UHGV virus genome: UHGV-0081264
Length of the DNA stretch: 14,630 nucleotides
Reading direction: 5' to 3' (one strand)
Origin: a virus
The position numbers were made by a program, and so were the translations under genes. This document shows positions 4,724-14,223 of this stretch, piece by piece. The notes beneath the pieces were generated by a model. The model searched no databases. It was not told where the DNA came from and saw only the letters and a program-made list of their open reading frames with translations. How positions within the stretch are numbered: the stretch's first letter is position 1; each line of letters starts with the position of its first letter.

Positions 4724-5243
4724 TCAGCAACCCCGGTATCATTTCATCCAGCGCAGCTGCCTTGTTCATGGCCTTAATGATGTCCTTCTTGAGGAAATCA
4801 ATATGTCGGTTCTCCAGCTCCGGGAAGCGCCGCTGAACCGACAGAGGTATTCCATCGAGAATGCTGGCGATTTCTCCGGCTACCCGCGACAGCACGAACG
4901 TGCAGAATGCGGTCTCCACCACTTCAGCGGACTCTTTTGCATTTTTTAATTCCTGAGCGTCAGCCTGAGCTCGCGTAAGTCGGTGTCGCTCATATTCAAT
5001 CGTGCCAGGTTGAAGATCGGACTCAGAAGCGATACGGAGATCTTCAACTTCCTTCCGCAACTTTTCATTTTCTATAGCTGCATCGCGCGCACTGTACCAT
5101 TCGATTGCAGCAGCAGATTCAAAGAGAACCTCATTACCTTTGCCACCACCGCGGACAACCGGCATACCTTGCTCCTGCCAGTTCTGAATCGTTCGGACGC
5201 TTACCCCGAAAATTTCGGATAAGCGTTTTTTGTTAACCTCCAT
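4698..5243 (-). CDS. Nu1: Terminase small subunit, lambda Nu1-like
   Basis: 181-aa ORF with ATG start. MEVNKKRLSEIFGVSVRTIQNWQEQGMPV... carries the Nu1 winged-HTH N-terminus. Lies immediately downstream of cos on the minus strand. Confidence 0.95.
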   Translation of the reverse strand: MEVNKKRLSEIFGVSVRTIQNWQEQGMPVVRGGGKGNEVLFESAAAIEWYSARDAAIENEKLRKEVEDLRIASESDLQPGTIEYERHRLTRAQADAQELKNAKESAEVVETAFCTFVLSRVAGEIASILDGIPLSVQRRFPELENRHIDFLKKDIIKAMNKAAALDEMIPGLLSEYIEQSG

Positions 5244-5254
5244 GGCTTACTCCT

Positions 5255-5432
5255 GGCAAAAAACAGAGAAAGGAAACAATCAACGGTAAACTTCCGTTTT
5301 CCTTGCTCAGCATTTCCTTTCTGGAGAGAGGACGTTTTTAACAAAAACAATGAGTAAACAAGAAGAAGAACGGAAATGGCATAAACCAGAAAATTTTCAT
5401 AAATAGCGAGAATCTGCGCGGACGCCGCCCCG
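5255..5432. other. cos: cos site: cosB-like GGAAA-containing repeats (about 5262–5380) plus cosN (reverse complement of 5419..5430 is GGGCGGCGTCCG)
   Basis: Read on the minus strand, the region upstream of Nu1 aligns with the lambda left end as I recall it (GGGCGGCGACCT cohesive end, then ...CGCTATTTATGAAAATTTTC..., then R-site repeats). The 12-nt cohesive-end equivalent differs from lambda at two positions. Confidence 0.75.
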
Positions 5433-5531
5433 TAACAAGGCGGATCGCCGGAAAGGACCCGCAAATGATAATGATTATCATTTGCTGGAATGCGACTTGA
5501 TTCGCACCCATTTGGACGTCTAAACGTCCAT

Positions 5532-5999
5532 TCATCGCGACAGCGCTGACCATATCGTGCCACCTGGCCGAAGACTCTTCTTCAGTTCCTCGGACACAAC
5601 ATCTGAGATCGCTTTTACCATTTCAGGGGATAGCTTCACGCCGGTCTTAATTTCGGGACAGATGCCAACATTGATGGCATAGCCTTTTCGTGGGTCGTTC
5701 TCTATCCGGCCAAACTGAATATTTACAGAGCCACCAATATAACCACCAGCAGGAACACCAAAGCGCGTATTCACCAGGTGCTTAATGGCGAACTCCTGCC
5801 CTTCAGCGGTCAGGAAGGTGTAATAATTTTCCTTTTGATACTCCGTCGCGGTATGGCGTGTTTCAGCGAATCCCAGCTCTAGAAGCTCAGCAGCACCAGA
5901 TTTGGCTGGCAGATCACCAGACTGAAGCGCGCCACGGAAAAACAGCGCATACAGAACATCCGTCGCCGCGCCGGACAACGTGATAATTTTATGACCCAT
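5532..5999 (-). CDS. Hypothetical protein, 155 aa, cos-proximal accessory gene
   Basis: ATG start with an AAGGAA Shine-Dalgarno about 9 nt upstream. A 3' hairpin (5514..5529) follows 3 nt after the stop. I do not recognise the protein. Confidence 0.6.
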   Translation of the reverse strand: MGHKIITLSGAATDVLYALFFRGALQSGDLPAKSGAAELLELGFAETRHTATEYQKENYYTFLTAEGQEFAIKHLVNTRFGVPAGGYIGGSVNIQFGRIENDPRKGYAINVGICPEIKTGVKLSPEMVKAISDVVSEELKKSLRPGGTIWSALSR

Positions 6000-6759: not shown

Positions 6760-7017
6760 CTACTTCGCTTTTGCTTCCGCTCGCTTACGCCGGCGCTCTT
6801 CTTTCCTCTCGGCTTTTGCCATGTCCATGAATGCCTGCATGATCGAGTTCCGCATCATGTAGCTAACAAAGTGATGATTGACACAGCCGTTGAGGCGCAG
6901 CTGCTCGCCAAACTCATCCACCGAGGCCAATGCTTCCATCATGCCCTTCTCGCCTTTCATGAACTCTGAGAAGTCGCGCCCCGCTCTGGAGGCGCATTCT
7001 ATTATTCGGGTGCTCAT
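6760..7017 (-). CDS. Hypothetical small protein, about 85 aa, translationally coupled to the KilA-N gene
   Basis: ATG at 7017..7015 sits immediately after the upstream TGA (TGATCATG). Lys/Arg/Glu-rich C-terminus. The track's longer version (start 7077) overlaps the upstream gene in another frame. Confidence 0.45.
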   Translation of the reverse strand: MSTRIIECASRAGRDFSEFMKGEKGMMEALASVDEFGEQLRLNGCVNHHFVSYMMRNSIMQAFMDMAKAERKEERRRKRAEAKAK

Positions 7018-7019
7018 GA

Positions 7020-7748
7020 TCAGGCCGCCGCATAGAGCAATTTCATCTGCCCTTTCACCGGGAATGCCGACATGCAACGCGCTTCGAAATCACGATAATC
7101 AGAGCACCCATTGGCAATGCTGGTAACGGCAATGATCTGTCGCTCAACCAATGTCAGCGCGTCAGGTTTAAGGTGCTGATGGATTTTGTCTCCCGCAGCC
7201 AGCCGTCTTTTAACCTCTGCATATACTTCTGGTGGTAATACCTGGCCATATACCCACTTGGCACTGATCATCCCAAATAGTGCGGGGCGACGACCTGGTC
7301 GATGACGGGGCAGCCCTGACATTTTGAACATCGCAGAATAAAACGGATCGCTAAACCTCTTTTCCCATGGCTGAGATTTATCCAGAAGGAAAATAGCCTT
7401 TATTCTTTCATCGTCGATATGATGAACGGAACCCTGAATGATTGCGTCAATTTGCTCATCACACCAGATCTCAAAATCTACAGAAAGCCATCGAGCAAAT
7501 CTGACCGCCAGCTTTGGGTGAAGCCATGTTCCGCCGCCACGGTCTTTGCGAGCGCGGCTGGTTTTTACATATGTGATATTCCCATATCTACTCTTTAACG
7601 CCTCGATGTAACGGACAGTCTCAGGAAGCCTAAGCCACTGAGCCGGCTCCTTGTTGAACTTGTCAGCTGCCGCAGTCGCGTCAAACCAGCCATCGTCAGA
7701 AAAACGCATGGGATGGCCTTCGAAATCAATCGGGATGATATTGGACAT
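7020..7748 (-). CDS. KilA-N domain protein
   Basis: Likely start ATG at 7748 (MSNIIPIDFEGHPMRF...) with AAGGT about 7 nt upstream; the track extends to a GTG at 7823. The GGTWLHPKLAVRFARWLSVDFEIWCDEQI segment fits the KilA-N/APSES-type motif as I recall it. Confidence 0.7.
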   Translation of the reverse strand: MSNIIPIDFEGHPMRFSDDGWFDATAAADKFNKEPAQWLRLPETVRYIEALKSRYGNITYVKTSRARKDRGGGTWLHPKLAVRFARWLSVDFEIWCDEQIDAIIQGSVHHIDDERIKAIFLLDKSQPWEKRFSDPFYSAMFKMSGLPRHRPGRRPALFGMISAKWVYGQVLPPEVYAEVKRRLAAGDKIHQHLKPDALTLVERQIIAVTSIANGCSDYRDFEARCMSAFPVKGQMKLLYAAA

Positions 7749-7897
7749 CGTATTTACCTTTTTGGTGATATGAGCCAGTTCTCGCAGACATGGACAGCCC
7801 AAGAGCGGCACGATGTAAGCCACCGTCCTGTCTCTGTCTCATATCCCGAAAAGCTCTTGGTTGATATGCGCACGAGAATGCGCGGTTTACTGCGGAC

Positions 7898-7942: not shown

Positions 7943-8845
7943 TTAAGACTGGATATTCCAAATCATTGCGTTACCGTTATGATTTTCAATGATTTTTGCC
8001 AGTGGTGCTCCACCAAAAGAATGCATGTAGCTGTGATGTATAGTCAAAACCAAATCTTGAAGTACTTGATCACTTTCAAGTTCGGTAACATTCAACCCAA
8101 TTTTCTGCGCCTTATCAAAATGAATATGACGCGAGTGGGTATAGGTTGTGTGATGGTTGTTTAACTCTGAACAAACATGTGTTGCTTTTGATTCTGCCTC
8201 AGGATCATTATCAAACATGCCTGTCATAAGCCAATGCTTAACAATCTCATTTGCCCATTTGATTGCTTTCTCACACTCGCCGATGATCGTCGGGTTTAGC
8301 TTTTGAAGAATGAACTGCCACATCTGAACAGCTGCGGGATTTTGAAAAATTTCCGTCTGCGCACGATTCCATTCTTCAATGATGGCATGGGTGGAGAAAC
8401 CGTTGAACTGAGGATCAATTGGGCCAATGTTGGACTGTTTACCCATGATGATTTCATTGGCACAACATGCAAGCATAGTTCCGCAGGACATTGAAATCAT
8501 AGGAACAATTGCTCTGATGTTAGTTCCAAACTTCGACCTTAAGTAATGCCCGATTGATTCCAAAGCGGCAATATCACCACCTGGAGTATGAAGTATCAAA
8601 TCCAACCCTTTTGATACATCTAAACCATTGATGGCTGTCATCAACCCGTTCTTATCATCATCAGTCATCTGAGTAAGATGGCGTACTTCTGCACCACCAT
8701 GCTGTAACCACCCTGAGTAATATGTGATTACATTTCTTCCAGTATGATTCGAAAGTTGAGATAAGTATTTACGGCGAACCTCATCCATAGGACTTTTATG
8801 GGCGAGAGCCGTTATCTCGCCCAGTACGTCGCTCCAATTAGGCAT
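7943..8845 (-). CDS. ClpP/S49-fold serine peptidase, SDH-family-like, 300 aa
   Basis: ATG start 3 nt after the upstream ORF's stop (coupled). LILHTPGGDIAALESIG resembles the ClpP/SppA oxyanion-loop motif, and PMISMSCGTMLA resembles the nucleophile region. AT-rich relative to the head genes. Confidence 0.7.
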   Translation of the reverse strand: MPNWSDVLGEITALAHKSPMDEVRRKYLSQLSNHTGRNVITYYSGWLQHGGAEVRHLTQMTDDDKNGLMTAINGLDVSKGLDLILHTPGGDIAALESIGHYLRSKFGTNIRAIVPMISMSCGTMLACCANEIIMGKQSNIGPIDPQFNGFSTHAIIEEWNRAQTEIFQNPAAVQMWQFILQKLNPTIIGECEKAIKWANEIVKHWLMTGMFDNDPEAESKATHVCSELNNHHTTYTHSRHIHFDKAQKIGLNVTELESDQVLQDLVLTIHHSYMHSFGGAPLAKIIENHNGNAMIWNIQS

Positions 8846-8848
8846 AAA

Positions 8849-9049
8849 TCAGTACGTGTAAAGTTGATGACTTGTAGTTTGGTTTTGCTTCGATTGTGTA
8901 GCGGTACCTTGTGAGTACCAAACACCTGTGTTTCCACTCGTACTAGTTTGCTGTGCCATTACACGAGAAGCGAAGTTGTTAACAGTTTCACCAGTCAACA
9001 TTTCTGCCGGTTTGATATTGTAAACATCGTAGAACTCAGCTGGGGTCAT
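8849..9049 (-). CDS. Hypothetical small protein, 66 aa, first gene of the peptidase operon
   Basis: ATG start with GGAG about 8 nt upstream. Ser/Thr/Gln-rich. Its stop is 3 nt before the peptidase ATG. Confidence 0.55.
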   Translation of the reverse strand: MTPAEFYDVYNIKPAEMLTGETVNNFASRVMAQQTSTSGNTGVWYSQGTATQSKQNQTTSHQLYTY

Positions 9050-9160: not shown

Positions 9161-9419
9161 AAAAGATGCAAAAATACTATCTATGACGTGACTATAGCTA
9201 CTTACCCACAGTTTATACAAGCCAAAAATGCTAAATTCAGATAATCCTATTCGCTGAAAAACTACACAAAAGCTACGTTCATCTTGTCATTAGATAACGT
9301 CAGTAACTTTCACTGGATCTAAGCCATTGGTGAAAAAGCTAATTGCATGATGAAGCACTGTAATGTAGCAGTTGAGGTTGTTAAATGAGAATCACCCTAA
9401 CAATGTCAACGGACATTAT

Positions 9420-9956
9420 TCATTTTCGTAACTTCTCAATCTCTCGTATACCCGCCAGGTTATTGTTGCCCTTCTCAATAACAGCCAGCAAAGGTTCAAT
9501 CCAGAGGACGGCCTGGCAATACGTCATTGAGCTGGCGGCAGCGGTACTATCATCGGTTGCGTTAGTGTTCCCGGTATCGGGGTGCATTGCGCTGGCACGT
9601 AAACGGTACGCGTATTTGAGCAGCCCACCAGCGACATCAGCAGGAACAGGCAGATCACAGGTCTTTTCACGTCGGAGAATCTCCCGGTATTCGATGACAG
9701 TTTTCTCAGTACCGGCATCGATCAGCGAGTTAAGGCGGTTGGCGTTCTCTGCTATCTGGTTAAACCGATTGAAGTTGAAAGCCTGTGTAGTTATCACCGT
9801 CGCCTGCAGCGCGTTATCATTACGTAATACCCGATTCTCACTCTGTTCTGTTTCAAGAGCTGAGCGGCTACGAACCAGTAATACGCTAAGCACTGCAATA
9901 ATGATTACGACAGCCACCAGCAGAACCGCAACAATCGTAATTTTTCTGGGTTTCAT
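9420..9956 (-). CDS. Rz: i-spanin (Rz-like)
   Basis: ATG start overlapping the endolysin stop (TGATG). N-terminal transmembrane segment (KITIVAVLLVAVVIIIAVLSVLLV), then a charged, helix-rich periplasmic domain. An o-spanin ORF is embedded in the +1 frame. Confidence 0.8.
   Translation of the reverse strand: MKPRKITIVAVLLVAVVIIIAVLSVLLVRSRSALETEQSENRVLRNDNALQATVITTQAFNFNRFNQIAENANRLNSLIDAGTEKTVIEYREILRREKTCDLPVPADVAGGLLKYAYRLRASAMHPDTGNTNATDDSTAAASSMTYCQAVLWIEPLLAVIEKGNNNLAGIREIEKLRK
9524..9718 (-). CDS. Rz1: o-spanin (Rz1-like lipoprotein) embedded within Rz
   Basis: Entirely inside Rz in another frame. Lipobox LVGC followed by a Pro-rich tail (PIPGTLTQPMIVPLPPAQ). The true start may lie downstream of the ATG at 9718. 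Confidence 0.7.
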   Translation of the reverse strand: MPVLRKLSSNTGRFSDVKRPVICLFLLMSLVGCSNTRTVYVPAQCTPIPGTLTQPMIVPLPPAQ

Positions 9957-10528
9957 CAGAATACCCCCGGAACTGATACCGGAATGCCTGGGTTAAGCGG
10001 CCCGAGCCCATCACCAAGAACCTGAGGTTTTTCTGCCCACAGGCAAACTTCACGCTCAATCTCACGCCGGGTAATCAACCCTTTCCATTGCTTACCACCG
10101 GCATATGTCCATCGACGAAGCTGATCACATGCGCCTTTGATATCACCCTGGTTTATTTTGTAGAGAAGAGTGGAGGTTTTGAAATTGCCAGCACCGACGT
10201 TGTAGACAAACGAGTAAAGAGCGCCCCGAGTAGTTTCAGGGATCGGAACCTTGATGTACGGATTAATCTGCTGCGCTACGGTGGTGAGGTCTTTATTAAG
10301 TAACGCTCGACACTCTGCTTTGGTGTAGGTCTTGCCGAGGATAATATCTTTACCAGTATGGCCCCAGCATACAGTCCACACTCCAACAACATCCCGATAA
10401 GGCTGATAGCGTACACCTTCAAGGCCATCATTACCCGTTGGGCCAGTAATCAACGCCGCAGCGATAGCAATAGCGCCAGCGGGTATCGCTGCAATAACGC
10501 TATTCTTCAGCTTTGGTGACATTGCCAT
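9956..10528 (-). CDS. R: SAR endolysin (GH24, T4-type lysozyme fold)
   Basis: ATG start. Gly/Ala-rich weakly hydrophobic N-terminus ([22 protein letters not shown]) typical of a signal-anchor-release domain, followed by the E-x8-D-x5-T catalytic motif ([24 protein letters not shown]). Confidence 0.85.
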
Positions 10529-10778
10529 TAAGCCGGTCCTCCCTTTCCTTTTTCCTGTAATACCAATTCACTGCACAGGTGATTACAGTGCATGCGATAC
10601 CGACAATAATTGCCCAGTCGCTCAGGCTTAACCCTGCAATTCTGTCGGCCAACATCCAGGACACCTCTTTTGCTGTTTTAGCTGTTTCGGCATATGCCTT
10701 CGCTGATACACCGCAGCCGGTCAGCGTGGTTCCTGTTCCATATGAAAGTCTGCTGTAAATGGTGCTCATTCTGGTCAT
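10500..10778 (-). CDS. S: Class II holin, pinholin-like (phage 21 S-like), with dual-start motif
   Basis: Starts MTRMSTIY (Met1 and Met4). Two transmembrane segments; the C-terminal end ...[13 protein letters not shown] parallels S21 ...NLYFKIREDRRK as I recall it. Strong GGAGGTGAGG Shine-Dalgarno. 3' end overlaps the endolysin start. Confidence 0.8.
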
Positions 10779-10888
10779 AGCCTCACCTCCGATTTTTCGG
10801 ATGGCGCTGTGTGTGTATGAAAAGGATCAGGCTTCACTGGCTGGATTTATCAACAAAGCACGTAGCGGATGATTCCCGGAAGCCTGAA

Positions 10889-10914
10889 ATAAAAAAGCCC
10901 CGCTATTACGGGGC
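10889..10914 (-). terminator. Intrinsic terminator (minus strand) after the 213-aa ORF
   Basis: Minus-strand GCCCCG-uaauag-CGGGGC hairpin followed by UUUUUUAUUU, about 20 nt after the stop at 10935. Confidence 0.7.
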
Positions 10915-10934
10915 AGTTAATAGAATTATAAAGT

Positions 10935-11576
10935 TTAAAAGTTTAAAGGAACCATAAAGCTACCAGGCTCTGCACCAGCTTCTTTATTTATTTCTTTACG
11001 GATTACCTCATTAATCTGAAAAGCCTCATTGTATACTTTTTCTAAGTTAATTGACGCCTTCATATTATAGTATGTTTTTTCCTCACAAACATATAACCTT
11101 ATCGGATATGGCCTAGGGTTGATTGCCTTCCAGTGGGAGATCACAAAATTATAAACTGCAATACCATGACCTTTCATCTTCCCTGCTGTAACATCAATGT
11201 TTAGCTGATCTAAATACTCATCGAAGTGTTGCAAGGTGTTTCTCACCCTCACGGAATTAATTTCCTTAATTTCAATATCTTTTATTTTTTCTTGAAGGTA
11301 ATTACTTCGCTCAATATGCAATCTGAATTGTTCAGGGGATTCTTCCCTAGTCTGATTTTTAGGAACTGCGATTAGTTTCTTGACGTTAGCCGCATCTGAA
11401 AGAATACTATTTATTAATATATGAATATTGTAATCAATTTTAAAGTAGTAACCAGCATCAGGAAGTGGTGTCTCATGAAAGAGCTCTTCACAGCGTGTTT
11501 TTATCGAATGAGTTAACAACCATAATTCGTGCAAATAAATAAAATTAAGTTTCATTTGCTCAAAGGTTTTTGACAT
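10935..11576 (-). CDS. Hypothetical protein, 213 aa, AT-rich accessory gene between Q and the holin
   Basis: ATG start with GGAG about 9 nt upstream and its own terminator downstream. Strongly AT-rich, with Lys/Ile/Asn/Tyr-rich composition. I do not recognise the protein. Confidence 0.6.
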   Translation of the reverse strand: MSKTFEQMKLNFIYLHELWLLTHSIKTRCEELFHETPLPDAGYYFKIDYNIHILINSILSDAANVKKLIAVPKNQTREESPEQFRLHIERSNYLQEKIKDIEIKEINSVRVRNTLQHFDEYLDQLNIDVTAGKMKGHGIAVYNFVISHWKAINPRPYPIRLYVCEEKTYYNMKASINLEKVYNEAFQINEVIRKEINKEAGAEPGSFMVPLNF

Positions 11577-11905
11577 AGCGAACTCTCCTTTTCAATAGTC
11601 CGCTTTTATAGCATTTACATAAGGGGCCTGTGAATTACTATTCTGTTGCTTACCACACTCTCGCAGTGGCCGCGCTCATGCCTTTGAGACCGTAGTCAGG
11701 GGTATCTCATGAATCCCTCACCTCTAACCGGAGAACGATTGGCGATCGTTCTGGAGTACCGGCACACCTCTTCTTTATTAACCCTAACCAGTGTGTGTTG
11801 CAGTTCGTACCTGCATCTGGCTCTCATGGAGACTCGGGACCGCATCACGACTGCGGATTTGCCTATCGGCTGCGGTCTATCCGTTTACTGGTGCATTTTC
11901 TTACC

Positions 11906-11945
11906 CTCCAGAAACGTAAAAGCCCCGGCAAACGCAAGGGCTACA
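11906..11945 (-). terminator. Terminator-like hairpin plus vestigial RBS and start; partial duplicate of the element at 12670..12703
   Basis: Minus-strand AGCCC-uugcguuugcc-GGGGCU followed by UUUACGUUUCUGGAGGG then ATGcaccagTAA. The 24/25-nt core CCTCCAGAAACG(T/C)AAAAGCCCCG is shared with 12665..12689. Confidence 0.4.
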
Positions 11946-12033: not shown

Positions 12034-12480
12034 ATGAGCAATTATTCGGATCTTCTTCAGGCAATAAAACTAAGAGTTTGCCAAAACAACAACATACCTA
12101 TTCCCTCTCTCACTGGCTCAGGCAGTTATCAGGCAAGGCAAGTATGGAACCGTATTGCGCAAATATTTACACTAGAATGCATACTAGCGGCACACAGAAA
12201 TGAATACGGCTCCGTTTTCGTTCCACTTGAAAATGAAAAAGCACTTCATCACATAATTTTTCTAAAAACAAAGTGGAATTTGGCAGAGATCAGAACTCTT
12301 TCTTTAAATGACTCACTCTTTATCATTGCAGAAATGTTCCGTTCAGACGCAATCCCACCAGATGCAAAGGTCTTTATGGAGTCGGTGCGCATACCTGAGC
12401 CTATTGCTTATCCACTAGAGGACTTTTCAGATGAGGACTGGGATCCCAAGGGAAACTCAGTTTTCCTTCAAAGCCATTAG
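12034..12480 (+). CDS. Hypothetical protein, 148 aa, plus strand
   Basis: ATG start with a weak GGGAA Shine-Dalgarno. Candidate sigma70 promoter upstream (TTGATA-N18-TAACAAT, about 11958–11990) and a strong plus-strand terminator about 35 nt downstream. AT-rich. Confidence 0.5.
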   Translation: MSNYSDLLQAIKLRVCQNNNIPIPSLTGSGSYQARQVWNRIAQIFTLECILAAHRNEYGSVFVPLENEKALHHIIFLKTKWNLAEIRTLSLNDSLFIIAEMFRSDAIPPDAKVFMESVRIPEPIAYPLEDFSDEDWDPKGNSVFLQSH

Positions 12481-12661
12481 CAGACATCTGCTCTAATTCT
12501 GCAGAAATTTCATTGAGCCGCTCTTCAAGAGCGGCCTTTTCTTTTCCCAAAATGTTGAAGCGTGCCAGGTACAGTCTTTGCTGCCCCAACCAGTCTTCAA
12601 GCTGTTCAGGTGTTAGCCCTGGATTATAAAAATGAGGCTGATGATTTTCCTGCTTGGGCAT
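12401..12661 (-). CDS. Hypothetical small protein, about 87 aa (MPKQENHQPHFYNPGLTPEQLEDWLG...)
   Basis: ATG at 12661 with GGAGG 4 nt upstream, directly after the tR'-like terminator. Its 3' end overlaps the plus-strand 148-aa gene by about 80 nt, and the plus-strand terminator hairpin lies inside it, so it may be spurious. Confidence 0.3.
   Translation of the reverse strand: MPKQENHQPHFYNPGLTPEQLEDWLGQQRLYLARFNILGKEKAALEERLNEISAELEQMSANGFEGKLSFPWDPSPHLKSPLVDKQ
12517..12546 (+). terminator. Intrinsic terminator (plus strand) for the 148-aa gene
   Basis: GCCGCTCTT-c-AAGAGCGGC perfect palindrome (12517..12535) followed by CTTTTCTTTTCC. Confidence 0.65.
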
Positions 12662-12669
12662 ACATCCTC

Positions 12670-12703
12670 CAGAAACGCAAAAGCCCCGCACGATGGCGAG
12701 GCT
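12670..12703 (-). terminator. Intrinsic terminator (minus strand), tR'-like, downstream of Q
   Basis: Minus-strand GCCUCGCC-aucgu-GCGGGGC stem (one U·G wobble) followed by UUUUGCGUUU. Same stem sequence as the terminator at 7898..7924. Confidence 0.55.
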
Positions 12704-12773
12704 CCTTAAAATCATTTACTGCCAGTGCATACAACAATGGCACAATATCAGATTTACATGAAATATATGCGTT
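12704..12773 (-). promoter_or_regulatory. Candidate late promoter region (pR'-like) between Q and the tR'-like terminator
   Basis: Positional inference only: AT-rich 70-nt gap directly after the Q stop and before a terminator. Possible -35/-10 hexamers (TTGTAT / TTTTAA) cannot be fixed by eye. Confidence 0.25.
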
Positions 12774-13463
12774 TTAATCCAGTTTTGCAATATTTTGGTG
12801 TGAATTTGTCGCCTTTTGTTGTGAACGTGATCGCGTTACTTGCAATAAAGCCTCGCTGTCGAGGCTCATGAAGATTCGCTTCATCTCCACCCAGCGGTCG
12901 GTAAACGTCTCTGACCAGTTCTTTGGTGTCACGCCCACCAATTCTGCCAGCGCCTGGTACTCGTATGTCTCACGCCCACCCAACCCCGCTTTCACATCCT
13001 GCGCCGCCAGCCAGATTAGCTTCTTCAGTCGCTCCATCGTTTTGCCTGCCACCCGCTTACCTTCCAGTTGCTGGCTGAACTCTGCCCACGCCCACTGGGT
13101 GATCGCCACCTGGTATTCGAAGCGGATATTCTCGCTGTAGTTCCACAGAAGCCATGCTTTCTGGTGGTCTTCAAGCGACAGCACCGCGCGGCGCCACGAT
13201 GCGGTCACAAACTCAACCGGCCCCACCAGCGCGATAGATGATCCCTTTGCGCGGGACTGGCTGCCGCTCATCGCCGGGCCGTCAGGGTTAACTTTCCGAC
13301 CAGTGACCGGGTCGGTGATTTTCTTCCTGCCCCGGCTGCGCGCCGTCGCGGTGAACTGCGCGTTTTCGGCGAAAGCTACCAGCTGCCCTTTCGTCGCCCC
13401 GCTGAGGTCTGCGGTCGCCACAATGAGCTGCTGACGTACGTATTCCAGTTGCTGACTGTTCAT
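12774..13463 (-). CDS. Putative late-gene antitermination protein Q (non-lambda type)
   Basis: 229-aa ORF, ATG start with GAAGGAAG Shine-Dalgarno. Sits between NinG and the lysis region where lambdoid phages carry Q. The sequence is unlike lambda Q, so the family assignment is by position and weak recollection. Confidence 0.5.
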   Translation of the reverse strand: MNSQQLEYVRQQLIVATADLSGATKGQLVAFAENAQFTATARSRGRKKITDPVTGRKVNPDGPAMSGSQSRAKGSSIALVGPVEFVTASWRRAVLSLEDHQKAWLLWNYSENIRFEYQVAITQWAWAEFSQQLEGKRVAGKTMERLKKLIWLAAQDVKAGLGGRETYEYQALAELVGVTPKNWSETFTDRWVEMKRIFMSLDSEALLQVTRSRSQQKATNSHQNIAKLD

Positions 13464-13572: not shown

Positions 13573-14223
13573 TCATGCTGCCTCCTGTCGGCGGGCGCGG
13601 CGTTTTTCCAGCGCGCGGGCTTTGCGTGTGAAAATGGATTTGATGCGCTGAAGGTATGGGATATCGAAGCGGCGCGGATCGTTATCAGATTCAAGGCGCT
13701 CGACACGTTCCTGTCCGATACGCTCAATCAGACGGATCCGGTACTCGACAGCATTGCCGCTCAACTGCCGGTTGCAGCGGGTGCAAGCGGAGTGGACGTT
13801 AAACACGTTGAATTTGAGATGCGATGCAGCGCCGCGCGAACGGTAATGGCTGGCGTCAATGGCGCTGCCTGTCAGGTAATTGCTCTTGCCGATGAGTGGA
13901 TTGCCGCAGCTGACGCATTCTTTTCCCTCGTCCCGGATCCGTATGTAGCGGTTGAAGGCCGATTGGGCCTCCTTATCCCACTGGGATTTAGACTTTAGTG
14001 ACTCGCGCTTTTCTTGTCGGCGTTTGCGCCCTTCCTTCTCTGCCTCTTTCTGCTCCTTGATCCGTTTAGCCACGGCTTTCACCTTCTCCTTTTCGCGCTC
14101 TTCCATCGCGAGGATTGCGCCGTGCTCCGGGCAGCACCAGCGGATCCGGATGTCGTAGAATTTCGGCACGAAGTATTCCCCGCATACTTTGCACTTACGG
14201 CGGGATGGTTTACGCATGTTCAC
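13573..14223 (-). CDS. ninG: NinG/Rap-like recombination protein
   Basis: Track start is a GTG at 14223; an ATG lies two codons in. [11 protein letters not shown]...WCCPEHG... and the C-terminal ...[20 protein letters not shown]...RRQEAA parallel lambda NinG as I recall it. Confidence 0.85.

Follow-up and report, generated by a model that had tools for sequence, protein, structure and literature searches.

The 14,630-nucleotide (nt) stretch of viral DNA analysed in this study (UHGV virus genome UHGV-0081264; the whole stretch is referred to below as the window) contains, on its minus strand (positions 10935-11576), a gene encoding a protein of 213 amino acids (aa). We propose, with a probability of roughly 0.5, that this gene is a moron of a lambdoid prophage, encoding a stand-alone HEPN-like ribonuclease (RNase) that would act in abortive infection (Abi) or superinfection exclusion; the proposal is made by analogy with described systems. 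A self-contained exclusion RNase is suggested because the protein carries a solo HEPN-type motif and an added module composed of a β-sheet and a helix, because no antitoxin or partner gene accompanies it, and because the family is carried both by integrons and in prophage accessory slots. Carriage by integrons argues that the function benefits the bacterium, and the conserved promoter-like site and terminator of the gene argue for its expression from the prophage.

The open reading frame (ORF) begins with ATG and ends with TAA (10935-10937). The original prediction, made from the sequence of the window, delimited a longer segment (10889-11576), comprised of the ORF plus its terminator. At the nucleotide composition of this gene about 7% of random codons would be stops, and 213 open codons would be expected by chance with a probability of ~1e-7 (our own arithmetic). 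Because of this low value, and because full-length homologues are present in 244 clusters of proteins, the ORF is not a product of chance.

Motif and modelled fold of the protein

The protein contains the motif R112-N-T-L-Q-H117. In an alignment of 22 sequences, residues R112, N113, H117, F118, D119, E120 and Y121 are invariant, and the pattern R-[N/H]-[S/T]-[L/I/V]-E/Q-H occurs at the same place in nearly all of the 150 representatives listed. A broader alignment (133 sequences, with a mean column identity of 18%) revealed eight positions conserved at ≥90%, i.e. Y14, E17, R90, R112, E/Q116, H117, D123 and Y162. HEPN RNases are defined by the signature Rx4-6H, in which the arginine is followed by N, D or H (PMC3710099), and the motif of the window protein has this spacing, with a polar residue directly after the arginine.

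The AlphaFold model obtained with a deep alignment (pLDDT 96.2, pTM 0.91) contains four helices (residues 11-35, 49-69, 81-97 and 109-116/118-130), the last of which bears the R112-H117 motif, followed by a C-terminal part built of a 4-stranded β-sheet (140-177) and a helix (178-196). HEPN domains consist of four helices packed in an up-down bundle, and in many of them an insert separates helices 2 and 3 (PMC3710099); a four-helical bundle is also what the model displays. The HEPN motif either terminates a core helix or opens the segment leading to the last helix, and its region is often kinked or non-helical, e.g. in 3jrt (PMC3710099). Analysis of the model with DSSP revealed that the helix is interrupted at 116/117, within the motif (helical segments 109-116 and 118-130); this modelled break fits the described distortion. 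The top structural match of the protein may also point to HEPN, and Cas13a, a HEPN enzyme, was the most recurrent weak match among the PADLOC models (5 and 3 of the 133 members for two models, best E = 9e-4).

Some results weigh against this assignment. Comparison of the 133 members with Pfam, NCBIfam and PADLOC (hmmscan) identified no significant HEPN family, and searches of the PDB sequences with two profiles returned only spurious matches to GCN4-adaptor coiled coils. HEPN proteins have a second conserved acidic residue upstream of the motif, typically within the sequence Ex3[K/R] (PMC3710099). E17, conserved at ≥90%, is placed in helix 1 but has no K or R at +4, and Ex3[K/R] is not clearly present. 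Taking these points together, we consider it somewhat more likely than not that the protein is a HEPN-like RNase.

The protein might also not be an RNase at all: it could be a helical-bundle regulator, adaptor or binding protein, in which the R...H motif serves ligand binding or has a structural role. We regard this explanation as unlikely. The arginine, the adjacent N or H and the histidine of the motif are kept from Thermoplasmata to E. coli at a mean column identity of only 18%, which resembles the behaviour of a catalytic site; moreover, the motif, its place at a helix distortion and, more tentatively, the top structural match point in the direction of HEPN.

Expression signals and boundaries of the cargo unit

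The gene occupies the slot between the antiterminator gene Q and the holin gene, but it is not alone there. The upstream boundary of the slot is formed by Q (12774-13463, minus strand; PF06323, E = 1.9e-86; phrog_304), which is preceded by NinG (13573-14223, minus strand). The downstream boundary is formed by the holin gene (10500-10778, minus strand), after which the genes of the lysozyme (9956-10528, minus strand) and Rz (9420-9956, minus strand) are located. The position between Q and the holin given in the original prediction was therefore correct, with the qualification that two further ORFs separate Q from the gene: (i) a 104-aa phrog_3501 ORF (12401-12715, minus strand) and (ii) a gene encoding a 148-aa phage-associated protein of the ECs1072 family (12034-12480, plus strand; NF033230, E = 3.5e-48). 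The ~450 nt between the latter and the gene of interest contain no convincing ORF. The phrog_3501 ORF and the ECs1072-family gene, whose 3′ ends overlap by 80 nt, constitute a second cargo module. This module is absent from three other carriers of the gene, described below (mEp237, YPE10 and BE2-5), and it is flanked by two tR′-like elements, GGGGCTTTT(G/A)CGTTTCTGGAGG (about 12690-12665 and 11935-11905), which look like recombination joints.

The remaining features ascribed to the gene in the original prediction, i.e. a strong ribosome-binding site, a terminator of its own and a G+C content far below that of the flanking phage genes, were all confirmed. The average G+C content of the gene is 33.8% (32.7% at third codon positions), while the values for the holin, lysozyme and Q genes are 48.0%, 50.3% and 57.4%, respectively, and that for the window is 49.2%. 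The Shine-Dalgarno sequence AAGGAG (11585-11590, minus strand) is located 8 nt upstream of the ATG, and its AGGAG core is retained in the copies found in Citrobacter, Enterobacter and Kosakonia. The intrinsic terminator (10887-10914, minus strand) consists of a 7-bp GC stem, a 4-nt loop and a U-run: the hairpin GCCCCGTAATAGCGGGGC at 10914-10897, followed by TTTTTTATTT, begins exactly 20 nt past the stop codon, and its predicted RNA fold has an energy of -14.3 kcal/mol (z = -3.6 relative to dinucleotide shuffles). An equivalent hairpin is present ~20 nt past the stop codon in copies from other genera (loci L061 and L011), and the changes in its stem are compensatory (the stem pairs compared were GCCCCG/CGGGGC, GCTCCGC/GCGGAGC and GCCTCG/CGGGGC).

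A promoter-like site (11605-11634, minus strand) was found 28 nt upstream of the ATG. It is comprised of TTCACA (11634-11629), an 18-nt spacer and the extended -10 sequence TGcTATAAA (TG at 11613-11612, TATAAA at 11610-11605); an automatic scan did not report it because the scan rule demands T at position 6 of the -10 sequence. The transcription start predicted from this site lies ~7 nt past TATAAA, near 11598. The AATG.TA portion of the extended -10 sequence is invariant in all six aligned copies (E. coli, Citrobacter, Enterobacter and Kosakonia genomes, and one metagenome contig), and ~70 nt upstream of the ATG are conserved between genera. Since the synonymous sites of the same genes are saturated, conservation of this non-coding upstream DNA and of the terminator argues for a function, and an autonomous promoter of the gene appears plausible. 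In the copies of Citrobacter (L061), Kosakonia (L067) and Enterobacter asburiae (L011), an inverted repeat, CAGGCA-N9-TGCCTG, is located ~35-55 nt before the start codon, where it overlaps the -35 region of the conserved promoter-like site. This repeat, which is absent from the E. coli (and window) version, may serve as an operator or may mark where the preceding transcript ends.

In lambdoid phages, the Q-modified polymerase reads from the late promoter into the lysis genes. The window contains a late-promoter-like site (TTGCAA-17-TATATT; 12762-12790, minus strand), which overlaps the end of Q, and a hairpin with a U-run downstream of it (about 12706-12680). By analogy, these elements are probably pR′ and tR′. 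Given the position of this site after Q, the Q-modified polymerase should read through the gene of interest into the holin gene. It is probable that the gene has two modes of expression, one from its own predicted promoter and the other by late read-through.

The limits of the inserted DNA were deduced from pairwise blastn comparisons. Three non-carriers with the same holin (HK225, OW1E2 and L6-21) align to the window only up to 10890-10900, i.e. into the terminator. OW1E2 is, in addition, identical to the window (100%) over positions 11653-11688, directly beside the tRNA-Thr gene that it carries in the Q-holin slot. The alignment common to all carriers extends to 11926/11927. From these limits, the inserted unit, comprising the promoter-like site, the ribosome-binding site, the ORF and the terminator, spans approximately 10891-11652 (minus strand). 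It is accompanied in all E. coli carriers by a non-coding leader (11653-11926, minus strand), with a tR′-like hairpin (11939-11923) at its upstream edge. This leader does not constitute a recognizable tRNA or RNA family, since scans of the window with ARAGORN and Rfam identified neither. The 36-nt match at 11653-11688 suggests that the cargo gene replaced the tRNA of an ancestral arrangement; no remnant of a tRNA is detectable at these positions by ARAGORN or Rfam.

The gene is absent from close relatives, deviates in its G+C content and has both a terminator and a promoter deduced from the sequence. A putative promoter, a ribosome-binding site, a gene and a terminator that travel together represent the classical anatomy of a moron.

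Distribution of the gene and its family

The coding sequence of the window is identical to that of gp56 (annotated as "hypothetical protein") of the cultured E. coli phage mEp237 and to that of a prophage gene of strain YPE10. A survey of 5426 complete E. coli genomes identified the gene in only 7 of them; 71 others match just 124 nt adjoining the holin gene. In the E. coli carriers the gene is always placed in the Q-holin slot, in combination with differing Q and lysis modules: (i) mEp237 and YPE10 have a Qin-type Q upstream of the gene, (ii) BE2-5 has a Qin-type Q in the form of a pseudogene, a different holin and a GH19 endolysin cassette, and (iii) the window has a PF06323-type Q and the two extra ORFs. 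In relatives with the same holin, the slot contains an unrelated 136-aa ORF (HK225), tRNA-Thr (OW1E2), or tRNA-Asn and an HNH gene (L6-21). The presence/absence survey that had been recommended with the original prediction thus revealed optional cargo, and the idea of a single-gene accessory element was supported, in that a self-contained unit is replaced by other content in related prophages.

Homologues sharing 66-70% aa sequence identity are present in prophages of Citrobacter, Enterobacter and Kosakonia, where they are located after the lysis cassette, with the HNH and terminase genes following them. Depending on the genus, the late operon harbours the inserted unit at one of two distinct sites. 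Some neighbours of these and related copies deserve mention. In three loci (L008, L009 and L010) the gene directly upstream of the family member (5638-5931) encodes an Acb2/Tad1-hairpin domain (PF24729), an anti-CBASS/anti-Thoeris sponge fold, and the same domain is matched weakly in the Enterobacter locus L011 (5739-5927; E = 0.055). The family member of Enterobacter prophages is followed by a 485-aa ORF (5801-7258 in L064-L066, 6810-8267 in L011), an uncharacterized cargo of the lysis-to-terminase region with no significant Pfam match (weak similarity to Glycos_transf_2, E = 0.003).

Comparison of the coding sequences indicates that the gene is under purifying selection. The BE2-5 copy differs from the window by two synonymous and three non-synonymous changes, and the metagenome copies L008 and L009 differ from each other by three synonymous changes and no non-synonymous ones. 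Relative to the Enterobacter-type copy L011 and to L008/L009, synonymous sites are saturated, with dN of 0.22-0.33. All copies examined are intact (8 coding sequences; the profile matches are full-length). A decayed remnant, which the original prediction had named as an outcome that would speak against it, is ruled out: the gene is intact and identical in three independent contexts, and its catalytic-type residues are invariant across phyla.

The wider family was not recognized by any curated library. Searches of Pfam, PHROGs, NCBIfam and PADLOC with the single protein assigned it to no family (the only match, to CasR of PADLOC at E = 0.007, was judged to be noise), and the same libraries searched with 22 family members yielded no recurrent significant family. 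A first homologue search retrieved 28 proteins, all of them unnamed or "hypothetical". A profile search of 1.84 billion representatives identified 244 clusters at E ≤ 1e-3 (59 at E ≤ 1e-30), whose members are nearly all 200-250 aa long, and the names looked up for ten of the clusters were exclusively "hypothetical protein". A second, word-indexed homologue search with a large alignment brought almost no additions, and tblastn against plasmids gave one marginal match only, in Kocuria. The protein had not been recognized in the original prediction either, which is in agreement with the absence of library matches and of informative database names. The family is undescribed and unannotated.

Genome loci containing family members were obtained from gamma-, beta-, epsilon- and deltaproteobacteria, Bacillota, Actinomycetes, Chloroflexia and archaea of the Thermoplasmata, and eight further loci come from viral contigs. 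An all-against-all blastp comparison of the adjacent genes (±3) revealed no neighbour common to more than two of 45 loci, and most of the shared neighbour pairs were duplicate copies of one element. The Pfam content of the closest neighbours (±2 genes) is mixed, including HTH, integrase, HigB, portal, GPA, KAP NTPase, resolvase and transposase. As there is no conserved neighbour, the family gene is self-sufficient.

Judging from the surrounding repeats, integron cassettes account for many of the proteobacterial copies. In a Lysobacter metagenome-assembled genome (L018), the gene is located between two of 16 attC-like repeats that start with CTAAC and end with GTTAG. In loci L005-L007, an integrase with the domains Phage_int_SAM_4 and Phage_integrase is followed by a run of cassettes, of which the family gene is the third; GTTAGGC is placed 15 nt before its ATG, and a 96-nt palindrome ending with GTTAGGC lies past its stop codon. 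A GTTRRRY...attC layout was recognized by eye in ten further loci (L012, L014, L015, L016, L019, L020, L025, L028, L030 and L033). A strict attC heuristic proved too stringent, detecting only L005-L007, and a relaxed version, which is crude and is therefore quoted with its control rate, was positive for 11 of 40 loci; of 301 other genes of the remaining loci, used as controls, 10 were positive. The GTTRRRY core, the attC palindrome and the array or intI are thus found with other family members, and the copy of the window is devoid of attC. In L005-L007, the cassette just before the family member (L005:5356-5877) encodes a 173-aa protein with no Pfam match, which carries an Rx4H-type motif (V-R-D-A-L-C-H-P-D). 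It may represent a second, unrelated HEPN-like cassette of the same array.

Several other features of the window were also noted. Between the lysis cassette and the packaging genes there is another accessory slot, occupied by a gene encoding a ClpP-like serine protease of the SDH family (7943-8845, minus strand; PF01972, E = 8e-23; phrog_11747; 41.6% G+C) and by the gene that precedes it, which is relatively AT-rich and encodes a 66-aa phrog_25714 protein (8849-9049, minus strand); the same ClpP-like protease is carried by YPE10. The accessory region between the lysis and terminase genes also contains a gene for a 267-aa protein with KilA-N and P63C domains (7020-7823, minus strand). No Pfam match was obtained for three further ORFs (5201-5563, 5532-5999 and 6760-7077). 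A 64-aa ORF nested in Rz in the +1 frame (9524-9718, minus strand) contains a lipobox-like sequence, LVGC, and is the probable Rz1 o-spanin gene, and the opposite strand contains a 203-aa ORF (9385-9996) that is probably spurious.

Proposed function and relation to known systems

The mechanism that we infer for the protein combines HEPN homology and RNase activity with oligomerization, a trigger, expression in the lysogen and a defence phenotype; it is borrowed, by analogy, from HepS, Tha and Esos (see below). In the lysogen, synthesis of the protein would depend on its own extended -10 promoter; at a late stage of induction, read-through from the Q-dependent promoter would yield the protein once more, at a high level. 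Upon oligomerization, the R112/H117 motifs of two subunits would form a metal-independent RNase site, which would remain closed until a signal of an infecting phage is sensed. The module composed of the C-terminal β-sheet and helix (residues about 135-213) is the most likely candidate for a sensor of a phage component. Cleavage of tRNA, rRNA or mRNA would then stop translation and abort the infection. The exclusion or defence factor suggested in the original prediction stands as far as computation goes, with respect to the optional cargo, the selection and the motif; the defence function itself is what we infer from them.

The gene could instead serve the phage during its lytic cycle, as a late RNase or a nuclease of signalling nucleotides that shuts down host RNA or disarms host immunity, i.e. 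as a takeover or anti-defence factor. The location of the phage copies is in accordance with this explanation: all of them are co-oriented with the late operon and adjoin the lysis cassette (before it in the E. coli phages and prophages examined, after it in Citrobacter, Enterobacter and Kosakonia), which suits a role in the lytic cycle as well as one in the lysogen, the layout predicts Q-dependent read-through, and the gene with the Acb2/Tad1-hairpin domain is placed immediately upstream in L008-L010. A further difficulty for the exclusion RNase is that the analysis revealed neither an inhibitor nor a self-immunity partner by which the phage could escape its own RNase in lytic growth. However, the family also occurs in chromosomal integron arrays and other non-phage contexts of many phyla, where a role in the service of a phage makes little sense; the conserved promoter-like element and the terminator constitute the anatomy of prophage-expressed genes, and the gene is optional, being absent from most related phages. 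A lytic-cycle function in general therefore seems improbable to us, and its specific form, in which the phage copies would encode a late-expressed anti-defence nuclease working for the phage, more improbable still.

We attach as little weight to a stress or addiction toxin, i.e. a solo HEPN-like RNase that would induce dormancy or stabilize the mobile element, and would be controlled by an unrecognized antitoxin (a small RNA or a tiny leader ORF). It is true that many HEPN proteins are toxins of toxin-antitoxin systems (7ae2 and 5yep are HEPN-MNT toxins), that integron arrays are rich in toxin-antitoxin cassettes, with a role in dormancy having been proposed for the HEPN domains of integrons (PMC3710099), and that a 350-nt non-coding leader accompanies the gene in all E. 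coli carriers. Nevertheless, the 45 loci contain no conserved partner ORF, only ~70 upstream nt are conserved between genera, the window has no Rfam match, and in the integron copies the attC/R′ box lies 10-30 nt from the start codon, too close to accommodate an antitoxin.

Two other candidates were rejected. A lysis accessory protein (antiholin or spanin) finds no support in homology, no transmembrane segment is apparent in the sequence or the model (as judged without a dedicated predictor), and separate genes exist for the holin, endolysin and Rz/Rz1; more generally, the library scans revealed none of the similarity to structural or lysis-accessory proteins that the original prediction had considered damaging to its case. 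A Shiga-like or other known toxin was discarded because no library searched gave a match.

In a broader interpretation of the exclusion RNase, which we advance tentatively, the gene would be the enterobacterial representative of an undescribed one-protein immune family, combining a HEPN-like RNase effector with a new β-sheet sensor within 213 residues, and would belong to a family disseminated among Bacteria and as far as Archaea by two unrelated vehicles, integron cassettes and the morons of temperate phages. If so, its placement in the late operon raises the question of how the carrier phage escapes from its own RNase during lytic growth. If correct, the proposal would provide a compact and easily testable addition to the single-gene anti-phage systems, as well as a name and a predicted catalytic site for at least 244 clusters in which all proteins are now "hypothetical". 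Genetic and plaque experiments should be straightforward, as an identical gene (gp56) is available in mEp237, an E. coli phage that is in culture.

What the gene most probably encodes, solo HEPN defence carried by a mobile element, has precedents in several recent studies. The new aspects are the family itself, the extra C-terminal module, the dual carriage by integrons and morons, and the position inside the late operon. In practical terms the finding is of modest value, because solo HEPN defence has already been described on prophages (HepS and Tha) and integrons (Esos).

The integron-borne HEPN family of Vpc_cass2 (PDB 3jrt; PMC3548836, PMC3710099) shares 12% identity with the protein in a structural alignment. 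There is no detectable sequence homology between the two, as 3jrt was not found among PDB sequences by the 133-sequence profile even at E ≤ 10. The model of the window protein differs from 3jrt in its extra 4-stranded β-sheet and C-terminal helix. Moreover, the 3jrt family has been described only from Gammaproteobacteria, whereas the present family spans several phyla and Archaea.

HepS, the "HEPN solo" Abi protein of the Salmonella prophage Gifsy-1, carries its motif at R100-H105 (PMC13043305) and provides the model for the proposed mechanism, with a closed oligomer, a phage protein as the trigger and cleavage of tRNA (PMC13043305). Both are single proteins of ~200 aa, with an Rx4H motif near residues 100-117, located in an accessory slot of a lambdoid prophage with no conserved partner, and both have homologues from Bacillota to Enterobacteriaceae (PMC13043305). 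They differ in that the N- and C-terminal strands of HepS are disordered until the trigger binds, whereas the model of the window protein has a pre-formed sheet (140-177). The PDB search indicated no sequence relation to HepS (PDB 9OIJ/9OIK), although the presence of these entries in the searched set was unconfirmed, and the comparison is made by description. HepS is absent from the LT2 copy of Gifsy-1 (NC_010392).

Tha, encoded by prophages of S. aureus, contains a C-terminal HEPN domain with the motif R-N-S-I-M-H, which may be compared with R-N-T-L-Q-H of the window protein (PMC11087260). It is a non-specific RNase with an Abi-like action, activated by minor tail proteins of the incoming phage (PMC11087260). 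Esos, likened here by description, is a single-gene cassette of the chromosomal integron of Vibrio cholerae, in which a HEPN-like domain is the sole recognizable feature (10.1101/2024.07.02.601686); it has been shown experimentally to protect against phage (10.1101/2024.07.02.601686). No Vibrio locus is present among the 39 genome loci retrieved with the pattern of the family. None of the 133 members matches the Pfam or PADLOC models of the lactococcal solo HEPN Abi proteins (AbiD/AbiF = Abi_2, AbiU2 and AbiV) or of HepT. No nucleotidyltransferase occurs among the 25 most frequent neighbour families, and the gene of the window is flanked by non-coding DNA and the holin gene; in the absence of an MNT partner it does not belong to a HepT-MntA pair.

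With regard to its location, the gene resembles the cargo carried between Q and the lysis genes of Stx phages (stx genes and tRNAs), which occupies the same slot, downstream of Q and the late promoter and upstream of the holin gene. Like this cargo and the morons of HK97 and HK022, it is optional, replaceable and AT-richer than the backbone, and is provided with a promoter-like site and a terminator. It differs in that its product is unrelated to Stx or to any toxin family in the libraries, and in that the unit lies on the other side of the lysis cassette in other genera. Integron cassettes and prophage accessory slots are both reservoirs of small anti-phage systems, including solo HEPN proteins (10.1101/2024.07.02.601686, PMC13043305, PMC11087260), and the family described here links these two reservoirs, usually studied apart, through the integron cassettes of environmental Proteobacteria and the late-operon units of enterobacterial prophages.

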